The notes below the pieces were generated by a model. That model was not told where the DNA came from and made no database searches. It was given only the letters and a program-made list of their open reading frames with translations. From Felixounavirus LF82P2, in the sequence record OZ035741.1: a DNA stretch of 64,000 nt; one strand, written 5' to 3'. Numbering within the stretch: the first letter of the stretch is position 1; every line of letters begins with the position of its first letter. The translations under genes and the position numbers were made by a program. This document shows, piece after piece, positions 14,051 through 62,471 of this stretch.

Positions 14051-16028
14051 AGGTCGTAAATTGAAAGAGGCTGGTCAGTTTGTTGGTCATTGCGCATGTC
14101 CACGTTGTGGTTCATCAGATGCTGGTTCAATCTATCACCATGACGATGATTCTTATTCAATGACTTGCTTTAGTTGTAACAAAGGTTTCCCAGAGTGGGA
14201 TTTTGATAAAGGACAAATCGTGAGCACTTATTCTACTGGTTCAGACAATAAAAACCGTACTTTCCGTGGAATGGATTTAGACGATGTGAGAGAAAACCTT
14301 GAAGCAATGGACTTAAAGGACAGGAAGATTCCTGCAAAAGTTCTTGAGCGTTTGGGTATCAAGGTTGACATTGACAGTGACGGTGAAATTGATGCGCATT
14401 TCTATCCAACTTACAAACGTAATGAAGATGGTAAGCTAGAGCACGTCGGTTACCGTGTACGTCATCGTTATCCAGAAGACCATCCAAAAGAACACCTACG
14501 AGGTAAGCTAAAAGACTTCTCAGGTGGTGTTGGAGACATTAAAGGTGAACTGGCAATGTTCGGTTCATGGATTGCTCCAGAAGGTGGTAACCGTCTATTC
14601 ATCTGGGAAGGTGAGATGGAATGTGCGACAGCAATCTATATGACTTCTCTTGCGATTAAGGACAAGTCTCGTCGTAAGAATTACTGTCACGTATCTGTTC
14701 CATCAGGTGCAAACATCAAGTCTATCAAAGATAACTATCAGTACATTACATCCTTTGATGAAATTTACTTGTGCTTTGATAACGATGAAGCAGGTGCTAA
14801 AGCTACTAAAGAGGCTGCTGGTATCCTACCTATTGAGAAGGTTCGTTTATTCCAGTACCCAGAGGGTGTAAAAGACCTTAACGAATGGTGGACAAAGTTC
14901 TATAAAGAAAAAGATACAGTTCTGGAAGGATTTAAGCAGCGTATCTACAATGCACCTCGTTACTGCCCTGCTGGTATCAAGAACTTCGCAGATGGTTTTG
15001 AGGCAATGAAGAATCGTGGTCAGATTCCATTGATTCCTTTCCCAGAATCATTCGGAGATTTGAACAGACTGACTTATGGTGGTTATGGTTTAGGTGAGAT
15101 TACAACTCTGGCAGCACCCTCTTCAGTGGGTAAATCTGCATACACTCGTGAAATGATTTATACTGCTTGGAAAGATACCGATTACAATATTGGTGTAATT
15201 CCTGTAGAAGATACCTATGAAGAGTTGATGGAGATGCTCTGTGCAATCCACCTGAGCAAGCAGATTTCTGAGATTCCTTATGACGAACGTGATTGGGATG
15301 AATTGAAGAAGGCACACGCAGAACTGTCTAAAGGTCGTCGTATCCACATCGTTGACCATCAAGGGGCAATTGACCAAGATAACTTGCTGGAGTTTGTTGA
15401 CTATCTTGTTAACAGCTTAGACTGTAAGATTATTATTCTTGACCCTATTACGTTGGCTCTGTCACGTTCAGATACGGACGAAGAGGAAGTTTTATCTGAG
15501 CTATTGCGTCGTTGCAAACGCTACCAGTATGCACAGGTGAACGTCTGTCACGTTCGTAAGAGTGCAGGTGGTCAGAAGGCTAACTCCGAAGGTGGAGATA
15601 TCTCTGAAGAGGATATTAAAGGTTCTGGTGCGTATTTCCAGATTTCTATGAACAACATTCTGTTAATGCGTAACAAGGTTGACCCAGACCCTGTTAAGAA
15701 AAACTTGACAAAAATCAAGTTAACTAAATGCCGTCGTCACGGTAAGTCAACAGGTATTGCTGGTCATACTTGGTACAATCCAGATACAGGACGTCTCATT
15801 AAAGCCTCTGGTTGTGGAGTTGACATTGATGGTGCAGCAGAAAATATTCGCCAACAGTTTGGTATTGGTGAAGCTGAAGACCATTACGATGACTCTTTGC
15901 CACATTATGAGGATGAAGTGTTTGACCGTGAGACTGGTGAAGTCTATACTGAAGAGCAGCGTCAAAGCTCAACGATTCCACCTGTATTAAGTGAGGATGC
16001 AGATGACTGCCCGTTCGAAACTGAGTGA
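14037..16028 (+). CDS. bifunctional DNA primase/helicase (T7 gp4-like)
   Basis: N-terminal Cys4 zinc ribbon (CPRCG..CFSCN), central primase-like region, C-terminal Walker A (APSSVGKSAYT) helicase. Confidence 0.7.
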   Translation: MLMSKGRKLKEAGQFVGHCACPRCGSSDAGSIYHHDDDSYSMTCFSCNKGFPEWDFDKGQIVSTYSTGSDNKNRTFRGMDLDDVRENLEAMDLKDRKIPAKVLERLGIKVDIDSDGEIDAHFYPTYKRNEDGKLEHVGYRVRHRYPEDHPKEHLRGKLKDFSGGVGDIKGELAMFGSWIAPEGGNRLFIWEGEMECATAIYMTSLAIKDKSRRKNYCHVSVPSGANIKSIKDNYQYITSFDEIYLCFDNDEAGAKATKEAAGILPIEKVRLFQYPEGVKDLNEWWTKFYKEKDTVLEGFKQRIYNAPRYCPAGIKNFADGFEAMKNRGQIPLIPFPESFGDLNRLTYGGYGLGEITTLAAPSSVGKSAYTREMIYTAWKDTDYNIGVIPVEDTYEELMEMLCAIHLSKQISEIPYDERDWDELKKAHAELSKGRRIHIVDHQGAIDQDNLLEFVDYLVNSLDCKIIILDPITLALSRSDTDEEEVLSELLRRCKRYQYAQVNVCHVRKSAGGQKANSEGGDISEEDIKGSGAYFQISMNNILLMRNKVDPDPVKKNLTKIKLTKCRRHGKSTGIAGHTWYNPDTGRLIKASGCGVDIDGAAENIRQQFGIGEAEDHYDDSLPHYEDEVFDRETGEVYTEEQRQSSTIPPVLSEDADDCPFETE

Positions 16029-16460: not shown

Positions 16461-16502
16461 TAGAATTGATACTCTTCATAAATTGAGATAGAGGTTTAAA
16501 TA

Positions 16503-17360
16503 ATGTCTAAAGTTGTTAAAATGAAAGCTCCGGTAGAGAAGTACAACGGTACTGAACGTCAAACTCTGCGTTACCTGCTGAAAGATGTCTGGTTTTATTA
16601 CCTGAACACTTCACCACGTCCGGGTAAAGGTAAATCTATTGACAAGAAATTCCCAGGAAAAGATTGTAACTACAGCGTATCAATTCTGGCAGAAGACGGT
16701 AACAAACTCTTTAAAGAGTTTACTAAGTCTAAGAAGAACCCAGAGGGTTGGGATAAAGTTACTACTGAAGCAGTTGATGCAGATGACTTCGAAGAGAAGT
16801 TTGGCTGCAAACCACCATTTGAAGCAGACACTTACTACATCTTGAAAGTAAGTCGTGCAGCAGCTTATAAAGATGGTGCTGTATGGACAGCTAAACAGTC
16901 ATTCCCTGTAATGCTGATTGAAGAAGTGAATGGTAAGCGTGTAGCTGTTAAGCAGCCGATGAAGAAAATCAAAGCTCAAGCATCTGATAAACATGAAGAT
17001 GACAAGAACTATGATGTAATTCATCCAGATATCGCAGTTGGTAACGGTTCTTTTGGTAGTGTGATTCTTTCTACTCACTTCTACACTTTTGAGAACAATG
17101 TTCTGACAAAACCTATTCAGGAACAGTTTATCATCGATACCCTTGTACCTTACACTGGTGGTAACGGTGCTAATGGTGAACCTGAACTGGATGAAGATGA
17201 ACTGGCTATGCTTGGTCTTGATGGTGTCGAAGATAACGGTGAAATCACTGAAGAAGACGCAACAGACCATAAATCTTCGAATGATTCTGATGATGGTGAT
17301 GATGAAGATTTGCCAGACCCAGATGACGAAGAAGATGAAGACTTCGATACAGAAGACTAA
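16503..17360 (+). CDS. single-stranded DNA-binding protein (putative)
   Basis: Strongly acidic C-terminal tail (DDGDDEDLPDPDDEEDEDFDTED); sits between helicase and 5'-3' exonuclease. Confidence 0.4.
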   Translation: MSKVVKMKAPVEKYNGTERQTLRYLLKDVWFYYLNTSPRPGKGKSIDKKFPGKDCNYSVSILAEDGNKLFKEFTKSKKNPEGWDKVTTEAVDADDFEEKFGCKPPFEADTYYILKVSRAAAYKDGAVWTAKQSFPVMLIEEVNGKRVAVKQPMKKIKAQASDKHEDDKNYDVIHPDIAVGNGSFGSVILSTHFYTFENNVLTKPIQEQFIIDTLVPYTGGNGANGEPELDEDELAMLGLDGVEDNGEITEEDATDHKSSNDSDDGDDEDLPDPDDEEDEDFDTED

Positions 17361-17378
17361 TCTCTAAAAGTTACTTTA

Positions 17379-17407
17379 AAGCCCTGTACTTAGTATGGGG
17401 CTTTTTC
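17379..17407 (+). terminator. rho-independent terminator
   Basis: AGCCC..GGGGCT hairpin followed by TTTTT. Confidence 0.45.
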
Positions 17408-17422
17408 ATATGGAGAGCCATA

Positions 17423-18469
17423 ATGGAGAAGTACACATTAACAAAACTTCCCGATTCAGTTACACATGTTTTTATTGACTCTGACAGCATTGCCTATAAA
17501 GGTGCTTGTGTAGTTGAGAAAGCAAAATATAAATACGTCAATAAACTCACAGCAGAAGAATCTGAACCATTTGACAATGCGAAAGATGCTGCAAGATGGT
17601 TAGCAGACCAGAGAATCCTTGTGGAAGAACTTGGCCTGACATTTGATGAAGATGAATGGGAAAGACAGACTTGGAAAGAAGCTAAGAGTGAAAAAGAAGC
17701 TATCATGGCTACTCAACAGGTGCTTCAGGAATGGCTTAAGATTGTTGGTAAAGAAAGAACTTGGGTAGGCTATTTAACAGAGAAAGGTGTGCATAAACAT
17801 AAAGACATTAAAGGTCTTGAGCACCAATATCAAGGGAACCGTAAAGATGCTGTCACACCAACACACTTAGTCGCTTGTCGTGAATACCTTCTGTCAAGAC
17901 CAGAGTTCAAACTCTTAAAGGGAGGATTCGAAGCCGATTCAATCGTAATTGCTAAAGCTGAAAAGATGGGTAAGAAAGCTGCTCTTATGAGTATTGACAA
18001 AGACCTTCGACAAGCTGAAGGAACTTATTGTATTGATATGACTTATGAAAAGTCACCACTAATTTTTATCGCTGATAATAATGTTGGTGATATCTGGGAT
18101 TGTCCTATCAAATCAAAACCAAAAGCTGCAAAAACAGTTGGTGTAGGTTTTAAATTCTTGTGTTATCAGGCTGTTGCTGGAGATAATGCAGACAACTACT
18201 TCGGCCTAAAAGGTGCTGGTAAAGTAGCTGTGATGAATGCTTTAGATGGTAAAGAGACCTACAAAGAGTGTCTTGACGCTATCTATGAACTCTATGCTAA
18301 AAAAGACTCTTATACCTATGTGTCATGGGATGGACAGACTGTTACAAAGACACCGTTAGAGTTAATGGAACAGCATTTCTTCCTAGCTTATCAAGAGCGA
18401 AATAAATCAGATATTTTTTCATTTGAAAAGTATGGTTGGACTCCAAATGTTGACTCAGCAGATACTTAA
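17423..18469 (+). CDS. 5'-3' exonuclease / flap endonuclease
   Basis: H3TH-like GDNADNYFGLKGAGKVA motif and acidic residues near N-terminus. Confidence 0.55.
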   Translation: MEKYTLTKLPDSVTHVFIDSDSIAYKGACVVEKAKYKYVNKLTAEESEPFDNAKDAARWLADQRILVEELGLTFDEDEWERQTWKEAKSEKEAIMATQQVLQEWLKIVGKERTWVGYLTEKGVHKHKDIKGLEHQYQGNRKDAVTPTHLVACREYLLSRPEFKLLKGGFEADSIVIAKAEKMGKKAALMSIDKDLRQAEGTYCIDMTYEKSPLIFIADNNVGDIWDCPIKSKPKAAKTVGVGFKFLCYQAVAGDNADNYFGLKGAGKVAVMNALDGKETYKECLDAIYELYAKKDSYTYVSWDGQTVTKTPLELMEQHFFLAYQERNKSDIFSFEKYGWTPNVDSADT

Positions 18470-21123: not shown

Positions 21124-23358
21124 ATGATTAAGACAATTAAAAAATCAAATGGTACAGTAGTAAGCTTTGACCCAGAAAGACTGAATAAGTGGGCATCATG
21201 GGCAGATAAACGTGGAATTATCTGGTCAGAAGTCACTATGGAAGCTATGAAACGTGTCTATGAGGGTTGCACTACAAAAGAGATGCACCAAGCCATGATT
21301 GATGTTTGTGTTGATAAACAAACTCAAGAGTACTCAGATATGGCTGGGCGGCTACTTCTAGGGATTATCTACAAAGAAGCCTTTGGAGGCTTTACTAAGG
21401 TTCCTACGCTGATTACCTTCGTTAAAAATATGGAGAGAGCAGGACTTTGGGAGAAGATGGACTATTCACAGGAAGAGCTTGAATACCTGCAAGGTTACAT
21501 CGTACACTCAAAAGATATCTCTTACGGCTATGCGGTCTTGAAACAGTTCAGAGACAAGTACGGTATCCGTGATATTAAAACGGGAAGACTGTTTGAGTCA
21601 CCACAATTTATGTTTATGGGTATGGCTATGAAAGCCTTTGAGAAGCAACCAAAGCACCGTAGACTGCAAGATGTTATCAAGCTGTACACTTACCTATCTG
21701 ACCTGAAGATTAACGCTCCTACACCTTATTTAAACGGTTTAAGAGCAACTAAATCAGGCTATGCGTCATGCTGTTTGATTAAGGCAAATGATACTGCTGA
21801 GTCACTTGGTATTGCTGCAAAGGTTGCTTATGATATGACCACAAAGCAAGCTGGTATTGGTATGCTGATGGAGACTCGAACTATTGGTGATGGTATCCGT
21901 CAAAATACTATTGAGCACATGGGTAAGCTACCTTATTACAAGCTTGTACGTTCATCTGTAGAGGCAAACAAACAGAAGAGTCGTGGTGGTTCAGCTAATA
22001 ACTTCTACACTGCTCTAGACCCGCAGATTGAAGATTTACTGCGTTTGAAGCACCCTACAACGGTTCCTTCTAAACGTATTAATGAGATGGACTACTCATT
22101 CGGCACAAACGATTATTTCTGGCAGTGTGTCCAGTATGATACAGATTGGTTGCTATTCTCTTACAAAGATGCACCAAAACTCTATGACATGTTCTACACA
22201 GCATCTGCTGATGAGTTTGCTATGGCAGTTGGTCACGCAGTACATTCAGGTGTTAAACACAGACGGGTAAAGGCTCGTGAAATTGCTAAACTGTTTATTC
22301 AGCAGCGTTATGCTACAGGTCGTGTGTATCCATTCTTCACTAACAATGCAAACACACATACACCATTCAAAGAACCATTGAAGATGTCAAATCTTTGTAT
22401 GGAAATTGTATTGCCAGTGTATGGTTTTGAGAAAGAGACAGACCTTTACAGAGACGATGCTGTGAAAGAGGATGGTGAGGTGGCTCTTTGCTTCCTAGCT
22501 AGTTTGGTTGCAGGGAGAATTTCAGAAGATGAATACGCTGACGTTGCTTATTATGCTCTTGCAATGGTTGACTCCGTTATTGACCTTATGGATTATCCGT
22601 ATCCGTCGATGCGTAACCATGTTCAGAAGCGTCGTTCTGTTGGGATTGGCCTTACAAATGTGGCTCATTACCTTGCGAAGAACTACGTGAACTACTCTTC
22701 ACGAGCAGGTAAAACGAAGCTTCATGAACTTGCAGAGATGCACTCTTACTATCTACATGAAGCCTCTCTGAGACTTGCTAAAGAGCGTGGAGTTCCAGAG
22801 TACATGAAGTTCACTAAGTATCCTGAAGGCTGGGTTCCTCCAAAGACAGCCAACAAGAAGATTGATGAGAAGCATGATGCAAAACTAAGATATGATTGGG
22901 ATGACTTAGCACAACGTATCAAAGAAAATGGTGGAATCCGAAACTCTGTATTAGAAGCTTACATGCCTAATGAGAGTTCTTCACTAGCAACTAATACGAC
23001 AAACGGCTTGTACCCAATTCGTGACTTTATTTTAACTAAAAAGTCTGCAACTGGTAACGTACTGTTTATTGTTCCAGATTATGAAGAGTTGAAGTATGTA
23101 TATGAAATTGCTTGGGGTATTGACACCTTTGACCTGATTGATTGTTATGCAATTGTTCAAAAGTTCACTGGTCAAGCTATCTCTTCAGACTTCTATGTTG
23201 ACTATGCAAAGTCTAAGAAGGTATCATTGGCTCAAGCTTTGAAGTACATGATTTATGCCAACTCTGTAGGTATGAAAACCATGTACTACCTTAACAGTCG
23301 CATTGGTGTAGGTAAATCTGCACTGCAAGATGCTTATTGCGAGGGATGTGGTGTTTAG
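21124..23358 (+). CDS. nrdA: ribonucleotide reductase class I large subunit
   Basis: 744 aa; ATP-cone-like N-terminus, C-terminal CxxC tail (YCEGCGV). Confidence 0.8.
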   Translation: MIKTIKKSNGTVVSFDPERLNKWASWADKRGIIWSEVTMEAMKRVYEGCTTKEMHQAMIDVCVDKQTQEYSDMAGRLLLGIIYKEAFGGFTKVPTLITFVKNMERAGLWEKMDYSQEELEYLQGYIVHSKDISYGYAVLKQFRDKYGIRDIKTGRLFESPQFMFMGMAMKAFEKQPKHRRLQDVIKLYTYLSDLKINAPTPYLNGLRATKSGYASCCLIKANDTAESLGIAAKVAYDMTTKQAGIGMLMETRTIGDGIRQNTIEHMGKLPYYKLVRSSVEANKQKSRGGSANNFYTALDPQIEDLLRLKHPTTVPSKRINEMDYSFGTNDYFWQCVQYDTDWLLFSYKDAPKLYDMFYTASADEFAMAVGHAVHSGVKHRRVKAREIAKLFIQQRYATGRVYPFFTNNANTHTPFKEPLKMSNLCMEIVLPVYGFEKETDLYRDDAVKEDGEVALCFLASLVAGRISEDEYADVAYYALAMVDSVIDLMDYPYPSMRNHVQKRRSVGIGLTNVAHYLAKNYVNYSSRAGKTKLHELAEMHSYYLHEASLRLAKERGVPEYMKFTKYPEGWVPPKTANKKIDEKHDAKLRYDWDDLAQRIKENGGIRNSVLEAYMPNESSSLATNTTNGLYPIRDFILTKKSATGNVLFIVPDYEELKYVYEIAWGIDTFDLIDCYAIVQKFTGQAISSDFYVDYAKSKKVSLAQALKYMIYANSVGMKTMYYLNSRIGVGKSALQDAYCEGCGV

Positions 23359-32312: not shown

Positions 32313-32333
32313 AGGGGCTTAAAAGCCCCATTT
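32313..32333 (+). terminator. rho-independent terminator
   Basis: GGGGCTTAAAAGCCCC followed by ATTTT. Confidence 0.4.
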
Positions 32334-45855: not shown

Positions 45856-46104
45856 ATGGCAACTATCCGCGCTACTGTTAACGAGTTCGGTTTTTCCTCT
45901 CTGGATGTTAAATTTGACATTGCAGGCACTGATAACGCCTTTGAAATGGTGAAAGGTCTTATCAGTCAGACCATCAAAGACTATAATCCTTCTGATGAGT
46001 TCTGGAAAGAAACAAAACAGGAAGTTCTCAAAGAGGGTTATTCTTATCACTATTGGGGTGAAAAAATTGTCTCTCTGTACTACGACAAAGAAGGCACTAA
46101 CTAA
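45856..46104 (+). CDS. hypothetical small protein (cassette ORF)
   Basis: Preceded by type A leader variant. Confidence 0.45.
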   Translation: MATIRATVNEFGFSSLDVKFDIAGTDNAFEMVKGLISQTIKDYNPSDEFWKETKQEVLKEGYSYHYWGEKIVSLYYDKEGTN

Positions 46105-46143
46105 ACGCCGCAGCGGGGCTAAATAGCCCCAGATACCTTTATA

Positions 46144-46167
46144 CAGCCCCTCACAGGGGCTTTTTTA
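46144..46167 (+). terminator. rho-independent terminator
   Basis: AGCCCCTCACAGGGGCT followed by TTTTTT. Confidence 0.5.
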
Positions 46168-47713
46168 CGTCTATCCAATCCTTATACAATCCCTTTCCTC
46201 ACCTTTTCAGAATCTTATCAGACCTTAAAAGCAATAACTCTATAGTCTACTCTATAGCCTTTTATCAAATCAACTTAAATATAAGCCAATAACCCCAGAA
46301 AGGGGATGGCCCACTTAAACGCTCTATAAAGCGCTATAACAACCTTATCAATCTAACTTAAGGGATTGCATTAACTCACCCTTAAAAGCTCTTTACAGGG
46401 CTTTATAGAGGCTTAAAAGAATCTTATAAGGTTATGAGCTTTATTGTCTCGTTAGTATCTTGTGAATAGTTAAACAATCCCCTTGATAGTCACTAAAAAG
46501 TATGTTATAGGGGCTATAAAGTTACTTCAAAGTTACGTAAAAGGGGCTATAAAGTTACGTAAATGCTAGCCCCCTTAACATTTTCTTAACAATTTCTTAA
46601 CAATCCCTACATAGTTATGCTTTTAAGGCACTTGTTAGCAACTTGTTAGTCCCTTGTTAAATCTCTGTTAAGACCACGTAAAAGCCTTGTAAGAGTCTTT
46701 GACATAGCCTTAAAAGCTCCTGTAAAGCCCTATAAAGAGCTATCTGTACAGTTGGGGGGATAGATACTAGGAAGAGGCTTAAAAGGGCTTATAAAGAGCT
46801 ATAGAGAGCTTTTAAGAGGTATGTTTAAGGAATCACTAAGAAAGGGAAGGGAACGATAAGAAAAGAGATAGTGACCGTGTTAATAGCTTGTTAAAAAGAT
46901 TAGACACTTGTTAGAAACTTGTTAATTATCTTAACAAAATAACTCTTAAAAATTAACTTGTTAGCTCTTGTTAGTCATCTGTTAAGAGACTATAAAGACC
47001 ATGTATCGACTGTTAAGAACTTGTTACAGCTTTGTTAGTTCTGTTAAGAGTCTGTTAAGACCTCTGAAGAGATGTTAAGAGGATGTAATAGTTGTTAAGA
47101 GATTGTTAATGATATTTTAAAATTCTGAAAAGGGGGGTGTTACAGGGATGTTAAGGGCTACCAAGCAGATATACATCTTCTACAGATATTTTTCAGTTCC
47201 TTCAGAGACCCTAAAAAATGACTTGATAGTCCTATTTTATAAAAATTTTAAGATTCTGAATAATTACCTATACAGCCTTTTAAAAATACAGGTAATAACA
47301 GGCTTATAAGATACCTTGTTAGTACCGTGTTAGACCTTGTGAGATAAGGTCTGTAAAGATATTCCTGTTAAGTTTGTTAAAACAGTCTATATAGAGGCTT
47401 AGTAGCACCTAGTGAACACCTATAGAGAGTATCATAGCTTACCTAGAGATTAAGAGGTGTATAGGAGCTTCTAAGAGGGTATAGAGAGAGGGTTAAGGTG
47501 ATTGTATAGGTTGTTAAGAAGGCTTGTTAGAGGGCTAGTTAGAAGGGTTATACAGAGGTCTATTAAGACCACTAGATAGATACTAAGATACTATATAGTA
47601 CTATATAACTATATAGAGAGTAAGATTAAGAAGGTTGTTAAGAAGGGTAGATATTTTGTTCACATATGATGGTGACCCAGAGGTTGGGACAACCGATAAA
47701 ATTTTATAAAAGT

Positions 47714-47738
47714 AAAAAGCCCCCAATTAAGGAGGCTC
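47714..47738 (-). terminator. rho-independent terminator (minus strand)
   Basis: Reverse complement GAGCCTCC..GGGGGCTTTTT downstream of minus-strand gene ending at 47749. Confidence 0.4.
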
Positions 47739-47748
47739 TTAAGATATT

Positions 47749-48372
47749 TTAAATCAGTGTTTCCAGAACTGTTTTTAGGGATGACTTAGTTGTCTGATAA
47801 AAATGAGTGAATCCGTTGTTATTATCGAATATCTGCATCATGATATCATCTCCCTTGATTGGATACACTCGGATATCATAGTGAAACCCATTAAAGACAG
47901 CAGAACCATTACAGAACACACTAAAATCATCCACTGAGATGTACTCTTCATGACCTGTGATTTTTATACAAACGCCTTTACTCGGTCTCTTAGGGTTGAT
48001 ATCTTCCATCACAGAAATACTCTGTCCACCAAGAGATACCATAGTGACCACTTTACGGTTCTTCTGTTTAAAGTACATCTTAACTTTCTGCAAAGTGTCT
48101 TCATAGAATGGATAAGACCTTTCTACAAAGATTCCTTCAAGTGGCTCTTTACCATTTTCAACTTCTCGGTTATGCCGTACTGCAAAGATAATTTGTTCGA
48201 ACCAGTCAAGATTTTCTTCGGAGAGTGCTTCTCGAACATCACTCCAGTCAAGTACTAGGTAGTTACCTTCAACTTCTTTTAAGTTATCTTTTTCCATAGA
48301 TATCACACCATTATCGTAAAACTTGATATTCTGGTACTGCGAATTTATTACTATTGTTCTTGATGAGGTCAT
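47749..48372 (-). CDS. hypothetical protein
   Basis: 207 aa ORF. Confidence 0.45.
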   Translation of the reverse strand: MTSSRTIVINSQYQNIKFYDNGVISMEKDNLKEVEGNYLVLDWSDVREALSEENLDWFEQIIFAVRHNREVENGKEPLEGIFVERSYPFYEDTLQKVKMYFKQKNRKVVTMVSLGGQSISVMEDINPKRPSKGVCIKITGHEEYISVDDFSVFCNGSAVFNGFHYDIRVYPIKGDDIMMQIFDNNNGFTHFYQTTKSSLKTVLETLI

Positions 48373-55919: not shown

Positions 55920-56006
55920 GGCAGACCTACAGCTTTAAGTAAGATGGTACAGTAATCCATACAACAAGTCAAGAACTATTGCAAGTTAAAAAAGTTGTTG
56001 ACAAAG

Positions 56007-56040
56007 TACTTGACAAGGTGTAGGCTTATAAATACTTAGA
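56007..56040 (+). promoter_or_regulatory. candidate promoter with conserved ACTTGACAAGGTG box
   Basis: Third copy of 13-mer; in divergent intergenic region before 56148 gene. Confidence 0.4.
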
Positions 56041-56147
56041 AGATTACTTAAAAGGTTCCTCTAAAAAGGCTATTTAAACAGATATCTTTCTGGATATCTA
56101 TCTTTTATCTTAAAAGCCTTTTAAGAGGTCTTATAAGAGGCATACCA

Positions 56148-56519
56148 ATGAAAAACAGAACAAACAAAGGCCAGTTTAAAAAAGGCCAATCTGGAAACCC
56201 ATCTGGAAGACCAAAAGGCTCTCGCAACAAAAGCTCACTTGTAAAAGCTCAACTGACCATTGACAATTCTGCTGAGTTTGCTGCAAAGTTATTTGAAGCG
56301 ATTGTTACAAGGGATGCTGCTAAGCTTGCAGAGTTCGGGTTAAACACAGATGACGTAACCATCAAGAGTATGATTGAGGTCGGTAAAACTATCTTTACTC
56401 ACTCAGCAGGTGAGATGAAAGCACTTGCAGCAGACACTAAGAAGACTCCTGATAATGGTGGTCAACAACAGACAGATAACAAACCAACGTTCTCTGCTGT
56501 AGCGACTCTTAAAAAATAA
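56148..56519 (+). CDS. hypothetical protein with N-terminal GNPSGRPKG motif
   Basis: 123 aa ORF; basic Gly/Pro-rich N-terminus. Confidence 0.4.
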   Translation: MKNRTNKGQFKKGQSGNPSGRPKGSRNKSSLVKAQLTIDNSAEFAAKLFEAIVTRDAAKLAEFGLNTDDVTIKSMIEVGKTIFTHSAGEMKALAADTKKTPDNGGQQQTDNKPTFSAVATLKK

Positions 56520-61667: not shown

Positions 61668-62225
61668 ATGAGATATTTGAAGTATGCTTCATGGATTTTC
61701 TTAGCTTTGTTAGAACCATTTGCAGCAATCTTAGCAGTTATCTTAGCACCTTTTGTAGTTCCATTTTACAGTGAGAAGAAAGGACACTTACCTTTCGGAT
61801 TTAGATGGATGGAAACTTATGACAACCCAATTGATGGTGATGAAGGTCACGTTAAAAGATGGGCTAATATTAGATGGATTGGTAAGCTTGGTGTCTATAT
61901 GCAGAGAGTCGGTTGGCTCTGGAGAAACAAAGCTTATAACTTCTCTTACCATGTGTTAGGAAGAGATGTAAAAGATGTTACTAAGTGGAAAGGTAATATC
62001 AACGTAAGTTCTAACCCTGAAGATAATCAGACAGGTTATCTCCTAATGTGGAACAGCAATGCTTGGGGATTATTCGCTTTTATACCATCAATTAAAATCT
62101 TTGGTAAACAGTTCTACTGGAGAATTTATATTGGGTGGAAGCTAAAAAGTGTTGTCCCAGAAGAAAGAGCATTCTCAAGGGAAAGAGTTATGTTGGCATT
62201 CTTTATTCATCCACTAAGAAATTAA
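61668..62225 (+). CDS. hypothetical membrane protein embedded in tRNA cluster
   Basis: 185 aa; hydrophobic N-terminal segment, Trp-rich. Confidence 0.4.
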   Translation: MRYLKYASWIFLALLEPFAAILAVILAPFVVPFYSEKKGHLPFGFRWMETYDNPIDGDEGHVKRWANIRWIGKLGVYMQRVGWLWRNKAYNFSYHVLGRDVKDVTKWKGNINVSSNPEDNQTGYLLMWNSNAWGLFAFIPSIKIFGKQFYWRIYIGWKLKSVVPEERAFSRERVMLAFFIHPLRN

Positions 62226-62233
62226 AGATTTAA

Positions 62234-62309
62234 AGGGGATTAGTTTACAAGGTTAAAACCTCGGTCTTTGAAATCGAAGAAGTTGGTTCAATTCCAACAT
62301 CCCCCGCCA
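62234..62309 (+). tRNA. tRNA-Gln (anticodon TTG)
   Basis: Anticodon arm TCGGT-CTTTGAA-ATCGA; T-loop GGTTCAATTCC; pair 1-72 mismatched. Confidence 0.6.
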
Positions 62310-62311
62310 AT

Positions 62312-62390
62312 GCTCCATTACTCCAATTGGCAGAGAGGCCAGACTTAAAATCTGTGTTATGTATCGGTTCGAATCCGATATGGAGTACCA
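62312..62390 (+). tRNA. tRNA-Leu (anticodon TAA) with intermediate-length variable region
   Basis: Anticodon loop CTTAAAA; discriminator A; D region similar to tRNA at 61490. Confidence 0.5.
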
Positions 62391-62395
62391 AATTT

Positions 62396-62471
62396 AGCGG
62401 TATAGCATAACTGGCAATGCAACAGTCTCTGAAGCTGTCTTATTAAGGTTCAAATCCTTATGCCGCTGCCA
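62396..62471 (+). tRNA. tRNA-Gln (anticodon CTG)
   Basis: Anticodon arm ACAGT-CTCTGAA-GCTGT; T-loop GGTTCAAATCC. Confidence 0.55.

Follow-up and report, generated by a model that had tools for sequence, protein, structure and literature searches.

Why should a compact phage genome hold 1.6 kb of DNA in which no open reading frame (ORF) reaches 60 amino acids (aa) and in which the same short words keep recurring? The question is raised by positions 46105-47748 of the window analyzed here, the whole 64,000-nucleotide (nt; 64-kb) stretch of Felixounavirus LF82P2 DNA in record OZ035741.1, to which all coordinates refer unless another genome is named. An earlier note, made from the letters of this DNA, had described the region as free of such ORFs, saturated with short degenerate repeats, and placed between two convergent genes, and had listed a replication origin, a packaging or injection-stop region, an array of protein-binding sites, and a noncoding RNA locus as possible explanations. 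The ORF list agrees with the first of these statements, the longest frame within the region being 53 aa (47148-47309). Matches to the region, at 75-94% identity, were found in 255 phage records; the window itself is Felixounavirus, all of the matching records are Felixounavirus, Mooglevirus, or Suspvirus (Ounavirinae), and the same two gene arms flank the region throughout. Here, we present evidence that the ends of the virion chromosome very probably lie within this region, and we weigh what its repeated words may do there.

Chromosome ends of relatives map to the region

Comparison with the termini of related phages, a check that the earlier note had suggested, was decisive: determined ends map here. 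The GenBank record of Salmonella phage UAB_69 annotates a 618-bp direct terminal repeat (DTR) that maps to 46567-47164 with 91.8% identity and is 100% identical to positions 15150-15767 of UAB_Phi87, a phage from the same laboratory. In the ECP2307 record, an exact 592-bp repeat, equivalent to 46569-47162, stands at either end. Records from several laboratories (H12, D4, CRP22, and I14.1) begin at the equivalent of 46569, and that of I14.1 matches the region at both of its ends. Ends are thus fixed and reproducible among isolates sequenced in different laboratories, at the equivalents of 46567/46569 on one side and 47162/47164 on the other. Transferred to LF82P2, these positions would have the virion chromosome start at about 46567/46569 and end at about 47162/47164, so that the roughly 600 bp between them would be the DTR. 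On the strength of this homology, we regard it as very likely that the DTR and chromosome ends of this phage are located in the region; of the explanations listed beforehand, the one invoking packaging or termini is supported, as the region would hold the DTR and both of its boundaries.

Published analyses of relatives address the same point. PhageTerm called a DTR and a linear genome for H12, D4, and I14.1 (PMC11737134), and DTRs of 581 bp (PMC8303462) and 613 bp (PMC6454146) have been reported in two further Felix O1-like phages. For UAB_Phi87, run-off sequencing was performed, and the sizes given for the Bal31-sensitive SpeI fragments are 4322 and 2819 bp (PMC4837284). With the SpeI sites of that genome at 13014 and 19582, a chromosome ending in this region should yield terminal fragments of 4433 and 2754 bp. 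The presence of a roughly 600-bp DTR in Felix O1-like phages is thus not a new finding, and one GenBank record annotates it at this place.

The relatives also allow the type of end to be assigned. They have the same sequence at both ends, and these ends are fixed and nonpermuted, which is the pattern of short exact (T7-type) DTRs. Headful packaging from a pac site, with one defined cut followed by permuted ends, is not what is seen, since both ends are defined and the DTR is fixed. In addition, the PhageTerm class of the relatives is DTR, against headful pac (PMC11737134 and PMC6454146), and the large terminase of UAB_Phi87 and Felix O1 clusters with DTR-type terminases (PMC4837284). The TerL gene lies outside the 64-kb window.

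This assignment changes how the neighboring genes are to be understood. The convergence described in the earlier note holds on the circularized assembly map only; in the virion, the two genes sit at opposite ends of the chromosome. The gene arms are the two ends of a linear genome, with transcription running outward along each arm until a terminator halts it, and their convergence is an effect of the circularized assembly.

One other location of the termini was considered and rejected. Termini about 15 kb away were first inferred from a 542-bp repeat present at both ends of the UAB_Phi87 record (JN225449, positions 1-542 and the other record end), which lies within the tRNA region and corresponds to 61893-62434. 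These record ends were ruled out as termini because the annotated UAB_69 DTR is identical to internal UAB_Phi87 sequence and other records start in the region studied here; moreover, they would give a 1134-bp SpeI fragment, which the published Bal31/SpeI sizes do not fit. The 542-bp repeat is probably a circular-assembly overlap, and the JN225449 record ends can mislead if taken as genome termini.

An inverted motif marks both boundaries of the repeat

The sequence TAGCCC(CC)TTAACAT, 13-15 nt in length, has exactly two copies in the 64 kb, and these stand in inverted orientation at the two DTR boundaries (Table 1). Both are invariant or near-invariant in a MAFFT alignment of 11 genomes from three genera, four of the genomes being from other genera; this alignment also underlies the statements on conservation that follow. 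The two ends of ECP2307, each read inward in the 5' to 3' direction, open with GGTAGCCCTTAACAT... and GCCCCCTTAACAT.... In the model developed for T7, concatemers carry one copy of a short exact DTR per junction, opposite strands are nicked at its boundaries, and strand-displacement synthesis then copies the repeat. One recognition element, inverted at the two boundaries, is what such a nick-and-displace model requires. A hairpin across the left boundary (GGGGCTA...TAGCCCC) was considered as a conserved structure and rejected, as it is not kept in the Bas63 and Mooglevirus sequences.

Two families of phased words make up the region

The 1.6-kb lattice consists of two families of words, each 7-8 nt in length. 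Class A words share the core TGTTA[AG], as in CTTGTTAG and CTGTTAAGA, and class B words are near-palindromic (CTTAAAAG, CTATAAAG, CTATAGAG, CTTATAAG, and CTATATAG). The earlier note had called the region saturated and had singled out a crowding of TGTTA-type words at 46900-47120, proposing k-mer enrichment against the rest of the genome as a check. Both descriptions stand: words are strongly enriched in the region compared with the rest of the window and are regularly spaced there, and 12 TGTTA[AG] cores fall within 46900-47120. Eight-mers of the CTNNNNAG type number 63, versus 16.6 expected from the window-wide density, with 16, 22, and 19 per 500 nt of the region and a window mean of 5.0 (standard deviation [SD], 3.2). 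CTTGTTAG has seven copies in the region and none in the remaining 62 kb. Counts in the region versus the rest of the window are 6 versus 0 for ACTTGTTA, 6 versus 1 for TATAGAG, 9 versus 7 for TGTTAAGA, 5 versus 14 for CTTAAAAG, and 5 versus 6 for CTATAAAG.

Neighboring words are mostly 10-12 or 20-23 nt apart, that is, about one turn of DNA or multiples of it. Successive forward TGTTA[AG] cores are separated by 10-12 nt in 10 of 25 cases, a number reached in 0 of 10,000 trials in which class A cores were placed at random (mean, 1.0 such spacings; maximum, 7). Class A arrays, defined as at least three words within 60 nt, were found nowhere else in the 64 kb. The 10.5-nt periodicity of WW dinucleotides is 13.3 in the region versus a background of 4.1 (SD, 2.0; maximum, 14.6), near the top of the window's range.

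Word cores are conserved, and signs of coding are absent

The left flank, the DTR, and the right flank are 74-80% identical to the four other-genus sequences, versus 62-68% nucleotide identity for the flanking coding sequences; the flanking 207-aa protein has about 50% aa identity with its counterparts in other genera. Within the region, positions of TGTTA[AG] cores are 86% conserved in these sequences, versus 71.5% elsewhere in the region. When all words are pooled, conservation is 79.7% versus 69.0%, a difference that was reached by 0 of 2000 circular shifts of the word mask. Indels are mostly 10-12 or 22 nt, corresponding to whole repeat units, and the spacers between cores vary freely. This pattern suggests that the word cores are under selection, being conserved while the spacers drift, and such selective conservation lends support to the array of protein-binding sites that was among the explanations first listed.

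The region does not have the properties of a protein-coding gene. In addition to the lack of any ORF of at least 60 aa, there is no third-position excess of substitutions: substitutions in the 53-, 41-, and 33-aa ORFs are not biased toward any codon position (P = 0.99, 0.35, and 0.12, respectively), in contrast to both flanking coding sequences, in which the third-position excess is strong (P below 1e-7). Public records, including those of ULIM3, UAB_Phi87, UAB_69, H12, and Michonne (gp118), annotate hypothetical proteins of 25-67 aa in the region; these are probably overannotations, because the three small ORFs tested show no codon-position bias. An Rfam scan of the region at a permissive E value gave only two subthreshold chance matches (25.3 and 18.9 bits versus gathering thresholds of 55 and 34), no tRNAs are present in the region, and sigma-70-like sites are not enriched there (12 versus 8.6 expected; SD, 3.1). 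The best of these sites was rejected as a promoter, as it consists of the words themselves and is not conserved.

Deeper conservation in phiEa21-4 and IMG/VR

Erwinia phage phiEa21-4 (Kolesnikvirus; NC_011811) did not turn up in blastn searches with the region, and a related IMG/VR contig has only a 124-nt match at 70% identity. The phage has a syntenic 1.4-kb noncoding gap at 16472-17912, in which TGTTAAGA has nine copies, compared with a single copy in the remaining 43.5 kb. The reverse copies (TTAACA) precede the forward ones, which is the polarity seen in LF82P2. Local alignment finds both boundaries, the first as TTAGCCACTTTTACATTTCGTTAACAA and the second as ...ACCACTAA followed by GCAGATATACA; the homologue of the left boundary motif reads TTAGCCACTTTTACAT. 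From these matches, we predict an unannotated DTR of about 443 bp in phiEa21-4, at roughly 17026-17468. The flanks of this gap carry different words (CTTCTAAG and CTTCTCAG) at the same 11- to 12-nt spacing. Since class A words and the boundary blocks are kept and the second family is not, the former appear to be subfamily-wide and the latter lineage specific. The annotated gp32 of phiEa21-4 (17660-17881) falls within the repeat-rich flank, and its status as a gene is doubtful.

A scan of IMG/VR with the right-boundary block GCAGATATACA as the query returned 78 stretches. The loci are bimodal, with 8-17 TGTTA[AG] cores in the 330 nt upstream in those of the Ounavirinae type and 0-2 in all others. 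All 30 of the array-bearing loci that were extracted belong to the four genera already seen, with no new lineage among them, and the remaining matches are chance matches without arrays.

A proposed role in concatemer maturation

We think it reasonably likely that the region is the concatemer junction, or maturation region, of a Felix O1-like (Ounavirinae) myophage, of the T7 type, with the words as phased protein-binding sites. Homology to relatives gives good support for the location of the DTR; what the words do there we infer. That the words serve packaging or maturation specifically falls slightly short of an even chance in our estimation.

According to this proposal, replication would make concatemers with one DTR copy per junction, and the packaging machinery would recognize the inverted boundary motif and cut or nick opposite strands at the two boundaries, after which strand-displacement synthesis would duplicate the DTR as in the T7 model. 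The phased words would bind a terminase accessory protein or another phage DNA-binding protein. At a spacing of 10-11 nt, bound proteins would line one face of the helix, an arrangement commonly seen when oligomeric proteins wrap or bend DNA, examples being initiators and the small terminases at cosB, pac, and pacL. A protein bound in this manner could wrap or stiffen the junction and position the nuclease at both boundaries, and could also mark junction DNA as the unique start of packaging.

Several points weigh against this proposal. The determined ends come from relatives that are 88-94% identical over the region, not from LF82P2 itself; two end determinations disagree by 2 nt at each end; and the fit to the SpeI fragments is approximate, predicted and reported sizes differing by as much as 111 bp. 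Measured from the boundary motif, the cut positions are offset by about 4 nt between the two sides, so that the mirror symmetry is imperfect. The words are candidate binding sites read from the sequence, repeated words can look more conserved than they are when repeat-rich DNA is aligned, and more than 60 word copies over 1.6 kb far exceed what known pac and cos recognition sites need. No small terminase has been recognized in this phage group (PMC3185647 and PMC4837284). Finally, a phased class B trio is also present near a divergent promoter region (56035-56137), in LF82P2 and in phiEa21-4, and class B words at least may therefore serve regulation rather than packaging.

A more elaborate version of the proposal, which we consider unlikely, would have the two word families bound by dedicated phage proteins, forming a wrapped, telomere-like complex of about 1.6 kb that joins the boundary motifs across 600 bp for coordinated opposite-strand nicking and DTR duplication. 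The class B reader would also act at the early divergent promoters and so couple the passage from early transcription to genome maturation. If true, this would be an architecture for packaging initiation without a canonical small terminase, conserved across the Ounavirinae.

Alternative explanations for the words

Alternatively, the region may be a replication element within which the DTR merely happens to lie, the words serving a phage initiator as iterons or nucleating a phi29 p6-like architectural protein that opens or primes DNA near the ends; we judge this to be quite unlikely. PMC3185647 names no origin for this phage group, and conserved AT-rich blocks are present at 47111-47127 and 47232-47248. 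Like the iteron origins of lambda (ori), P1 (oriR), and P4 (ori/crr), the region has phased short repeats in direct and inverted orientation that are conserved as words. However, classical iteron origins have 4-8 repeats of 17-22 nt, whereas here words of 7-8 nt are present in more than 60 copies. No initiator gene can be recognized next to the region, the proteins encoded on either side having no Pfam match; the A+T content is only 65% versus 61% for the window; and no clear unwinding element or clean DnaA box was seen, the latter by eye in the alignment with no formal scan run. The boundary motif, furthermore, coincides with the physical ends, which points to cutting and not to initiation.

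A role in DNA entry or end protection would make the words a T5-like pause or anchor for the first-entering DNA, or a platform for a protein that shields the ends from RecBCD. The words are within about 1.2 kb of both physical ends, and, read inward, both ends open with the same motif and the same word orientation. The T5 terminal repeat contains a repeat-rich noncoding stop region, and this left-terminal-repeat region, the proposed injection stop, is like that of LF82P2 in being large, conserved, untranscribed, rich in repeats, and near the end of a DTR-phage chromosome. The T5 repeat, on the other hand, is about 10 kb and carries genes, and two-step entry is documented for T5, whereas we know of no evidence for it in Felix O1-like phages. 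The arrays in LF82P2 also continue beyond the DTR in both directions, into DNA that is internal at either end, and nothing in the sequence separates an entry function from packaging. According to the PhageMaP preprint, whose study of Bas63 was aimed at genes and not at this region, Bas63 lacks a RecBCD inhibitor, which would suit a shielding function; overall, we hold a role in entry or protection to be distinctly improbable.

The words, or at least those of class B, could instead be operators for a phage or host regulator or for a nucleoid protein that silences or insulates the junction and controls early divergent promoters, leaving the boundary motifs alone as packaging signals. This, too, has a low probability in our view. 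The divergent intergenic region at 55920-56147, between the minus- and plus-strand arms, has tandem sigma-70-like TTGACA boxes and phased class B words (CTTAGAAG at 56035, CTTAAAAG at 56047, CTAAAAAG at 56061, CTTAAAAG at 56109, CTTTTAAG at 56118, and CTTATAAG at 56130) that extend up to the start codon at 56148, and the same trio occurs at the divergent region of phiEa21-4 (21244-21280). The divergent region of LF82P2 may be an operator for a regulator. The 57-bp intergenic repeats described in the Felix O1 paper (GGGGCTTAAAAGTCTGTAAAGTAAGCCCC) also contain CTTAAAAG and CTGTAAAG, and the WW periodicity of the terminal region would fit a nucleoid protein or regulator as well. Class A arrays, however, are exclusive to the terminal region. 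The idea that one protein reads class B words at both places was examined and rejected: the promoter region of phiEa21-4 is without the words of its own terminal region (CTTCTAAG), and since the terminal words of that phage differ while its promoter keeps CTTAAAAG-type words, a single binder for both places is not supported.

Hairpins of the form GGGGC...GCCCC were observed at 32314, 37436, 43679, and 44521, between small plus-strand early genes. They are of the same type as the Felix O1 57-bp intergenic repeats, and their loops resemble class B words (e.g., GGGGCTTAAAAGCCCC).

Words that are functionless by-products of replication slippage in freely drifting noncoding DNA are very unlikely. 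The unit-sized indels show that slippage happens, but the region is more conserved than the neighboring genes when compared with other genera, word cores are conserved above spacers, and the class A word and boundary blocks persist in phiEa21-4 despite the minimal blastn match. Least probable is the noncoding RNA locus of the earlier note or a set of small unannotated genes: some GenBank records annotate small hypothetical ORFs here, but no Rfam match reaches threshold, tRNAs, sigma-70 enrichment, a conserved promoter, and codon-position bias are lacking in the region, terminators point inward from both sides, and conservation tracks the words rather than stems, the left-boundary hairpin not being conserved.

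Relation to known systems

For the concatemer junction that we propose, the closest analogue is that of T7, the sequence of which was analyzed in the same way and has a 160-bp repeat with 13 CCTAAAG and 6 CATAAAG words. As in LF82P2, a short exact DTR lies in noncoding DNA, more than 15 degenerate words of 7-8 nt occupy the repeat and both flanks at regular spacing, and the words are alike in shape (YYTAAAG in T7 and CTWTAAAG in the LF82P2 region). The LF82P2 region thus shares the arrangement of the T7 junction, a likeness that we would attribute to analogy and not to descent. The two differ in period (13 or 26 nt in T7 versus 10-12 nt), in the number of word families (one versus two), and in length (about 0.6 kb versus 1.6 kb). 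Furthermore, the T7 junction is transcribed through by the phage's own RNA polymerase, whereas that of LF82P2 is bracketed by inward-facing terminators, and T7 is a podovirus, unrelated to the Ounavirinae myovirus and placed in a different family. The T7 repeat arrays are reportedly those named SRL and SRR by Dunn and Studier in 1983. That T7 also has noncoding, repeat-rich DNA around its DTR weakens the premise of the earlier note that so much structured noncoding DNA is unusual in a compact phage genome.

Other systems share parts of this arrangement. In Twort-like and SPO1-like Staphylococcus myophages, a short sequence is found in inverted orientation at the two edges of the long terminal repeat, which suggests that a single recognition element is used on opposite strands and recalls the LF82P2 boundary motif. 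Their terminal repeats, however, are several kilobases in length and contain genes, and to our knowledge no phased word lattice has been described in them. At lambda cosB (R1-R3), the P1 pac hexamers, and SPP1 pacL/pacR, phased short repeats flank the cleavage site, and the small terminase binds there and bends or wraps the DNA. These sites have 3-7 subsites over 100-300 bp; in LF82P2, the words exceed 60 and extend over 1.6 kb, and 600 bp separate the two predicted cleavage sites.

In our reading, the region is not a new kind of element but a DTR junction with short-repeat arrays, and a specialist would not be very surprised by it. In the literature, we found DTR lengths for several Felix O1-like phages; no account of the word lattice, the boundary motif, or their conservation across the Ounavirinae came to light, and the region is not taken up in the Felix O1 genome paper. 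Most of the approximately 250 public genomes of these phages are opened elsewhere, so that their chromosome ends appear as an unexplained internal gap, in some cases with hypothetical genes. The coordinates and the boundary motif permit genomes to be oriented consistently across the group and correct a widespread blind spot in annotation. Phages of the Felix O1 type, Felix O1 and Bas63 among them, have uses in diagnostics and therapy and as model phages, and the rebooting of synthetic genomes, the building of transducing vectors, and genome minimization need the cis-acting elements for ends and packaging. Even for T7, little is understood of how phages cut and duplicate short exact terminal repeats. 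An unrelated lineage with a clear inverted boundary motif and a conserved phased lattice provides mutable elements with which to probe the nick-and-displace model and to look for the DNA-recognition subunit.

Features of the region and its neighbors

The region consists of a left unique flank, the DTR, and a right unique flank, with coordinates collected in Table 1.

Table 1. Positions of features in and around the noncoding region of LF82P2
Feature	Position	Strand	Remarks
Hairpin GGGGCTAAATAGCCCC, just 3' of the 82-aa ORF stop	46115-46130	+	Pattern search; kept in 11 of 11 aligned genomes
Intrinsic-terminator-like hairpin and T-run, closing the plus-strand gene arm	46145-46168	+	Terminator scan
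Left unique noncoding flank	46169-46566		In the virion, just inside the right-end DTR copy
Predicted DTR, about 592-618 bp	46567-47164		One copy in the assembly, two in virion DNA; homology to relatives
Left boundary motif TAGCCCCCTTAACAT	46567-46581	+	Predicted left end of the virion chromosome at 46567 or 46569
Three reverse class A words (CTTAACA x3, period of 11 nt), left edge of DTR	46574-46604	-	Conserved in all aligned genomes
Four forward class A words (CTTGTTAG, CTTGTTAG, CTTGTTAA, CTGTTAAG)	46631-46672	+	Exact 11-nt spacing
Class B block in DTR	46686-46820		CTTGTAAG, CTTAAAAG, CTGTAAAG, CTATAAAG, CTTAAAAG, CTTATAAAG, CTATAGAG, CTTTTAAG
Main forward class A array, about 15 TGTTA[AG] cores	46876-47110	+	Spacing of 9-11 or 20-22 nt
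Conserved AT-rich block GATATTTTAAAATTCTG	47111-47127		About 40 nt inside the right boundary; recognizable in phiEa21-4
Right boundary motif, plus-strand reading ATGTTAAGGGCTA	47148-47160	-	Inverted copy of the left motif; predicted right end of the virion chromosome at 47162 or 47164
Invariant block GCAGATATACA	47165-47175		Directly outside the right DTR boundary; alignment of 11 genomes
Right unique noncoding flank	47165-47714		In the virion, just inside the left-end DTR copy
Intrinsic-terminator-like hairpin and T-run, closing the minus-strand gene arm	47715-47740	-	Terminator scan

The left neighbor is an 82-aa ORF on the plus strand (45856-46104) and the right neighbor a 207-aa ORF on the minus strand (47749-48372), with both stop codons facing the region and each ORF closed by an intrinsic-terminator-like hairpin that points into it. 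The left terminator is annotated as such in AYO145A, and its stem is retained in the alignment although the stem sequence varies; the right one is annotated in AYO145A and Michonne. Searches with the flanking proteins gave no Pfam match and only PHROG families of unknown function.

In the left flank, class B words (CTTAAAAG, CTTTACAG, CTTTATAG, CTTATAAG, CTCTATAG, and CTATAAAG) are spaced at 10-12 nt, with five in succession at 46381-46430; AAAGTTAC(GTA) repeats follow at 46518-46563, and the block CTTAAAAGAATCTTATAAGG (46412-46431) is invariant over the three genera. Within the DTR, the copy number of the four-word class A array differs among genomes by 11 or 22 nt, and the main class A array combines conserved cores with variable spacers of 3-5 nt. 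The right flank contains an invariant AT block (47232-47248), an invariant 43-mer with class A and class B words (47298-47340), and CTATATAG repeats (47587-47617). Two conserved blocks that are not made of words share a GTGACC core: one, inside the DTR at 46839-46876, is a purine-rich run with ATAGTGACC at its end, and the other, TCACATATGATGGTGACCCA at 47660-47679, lies near the right terminator.

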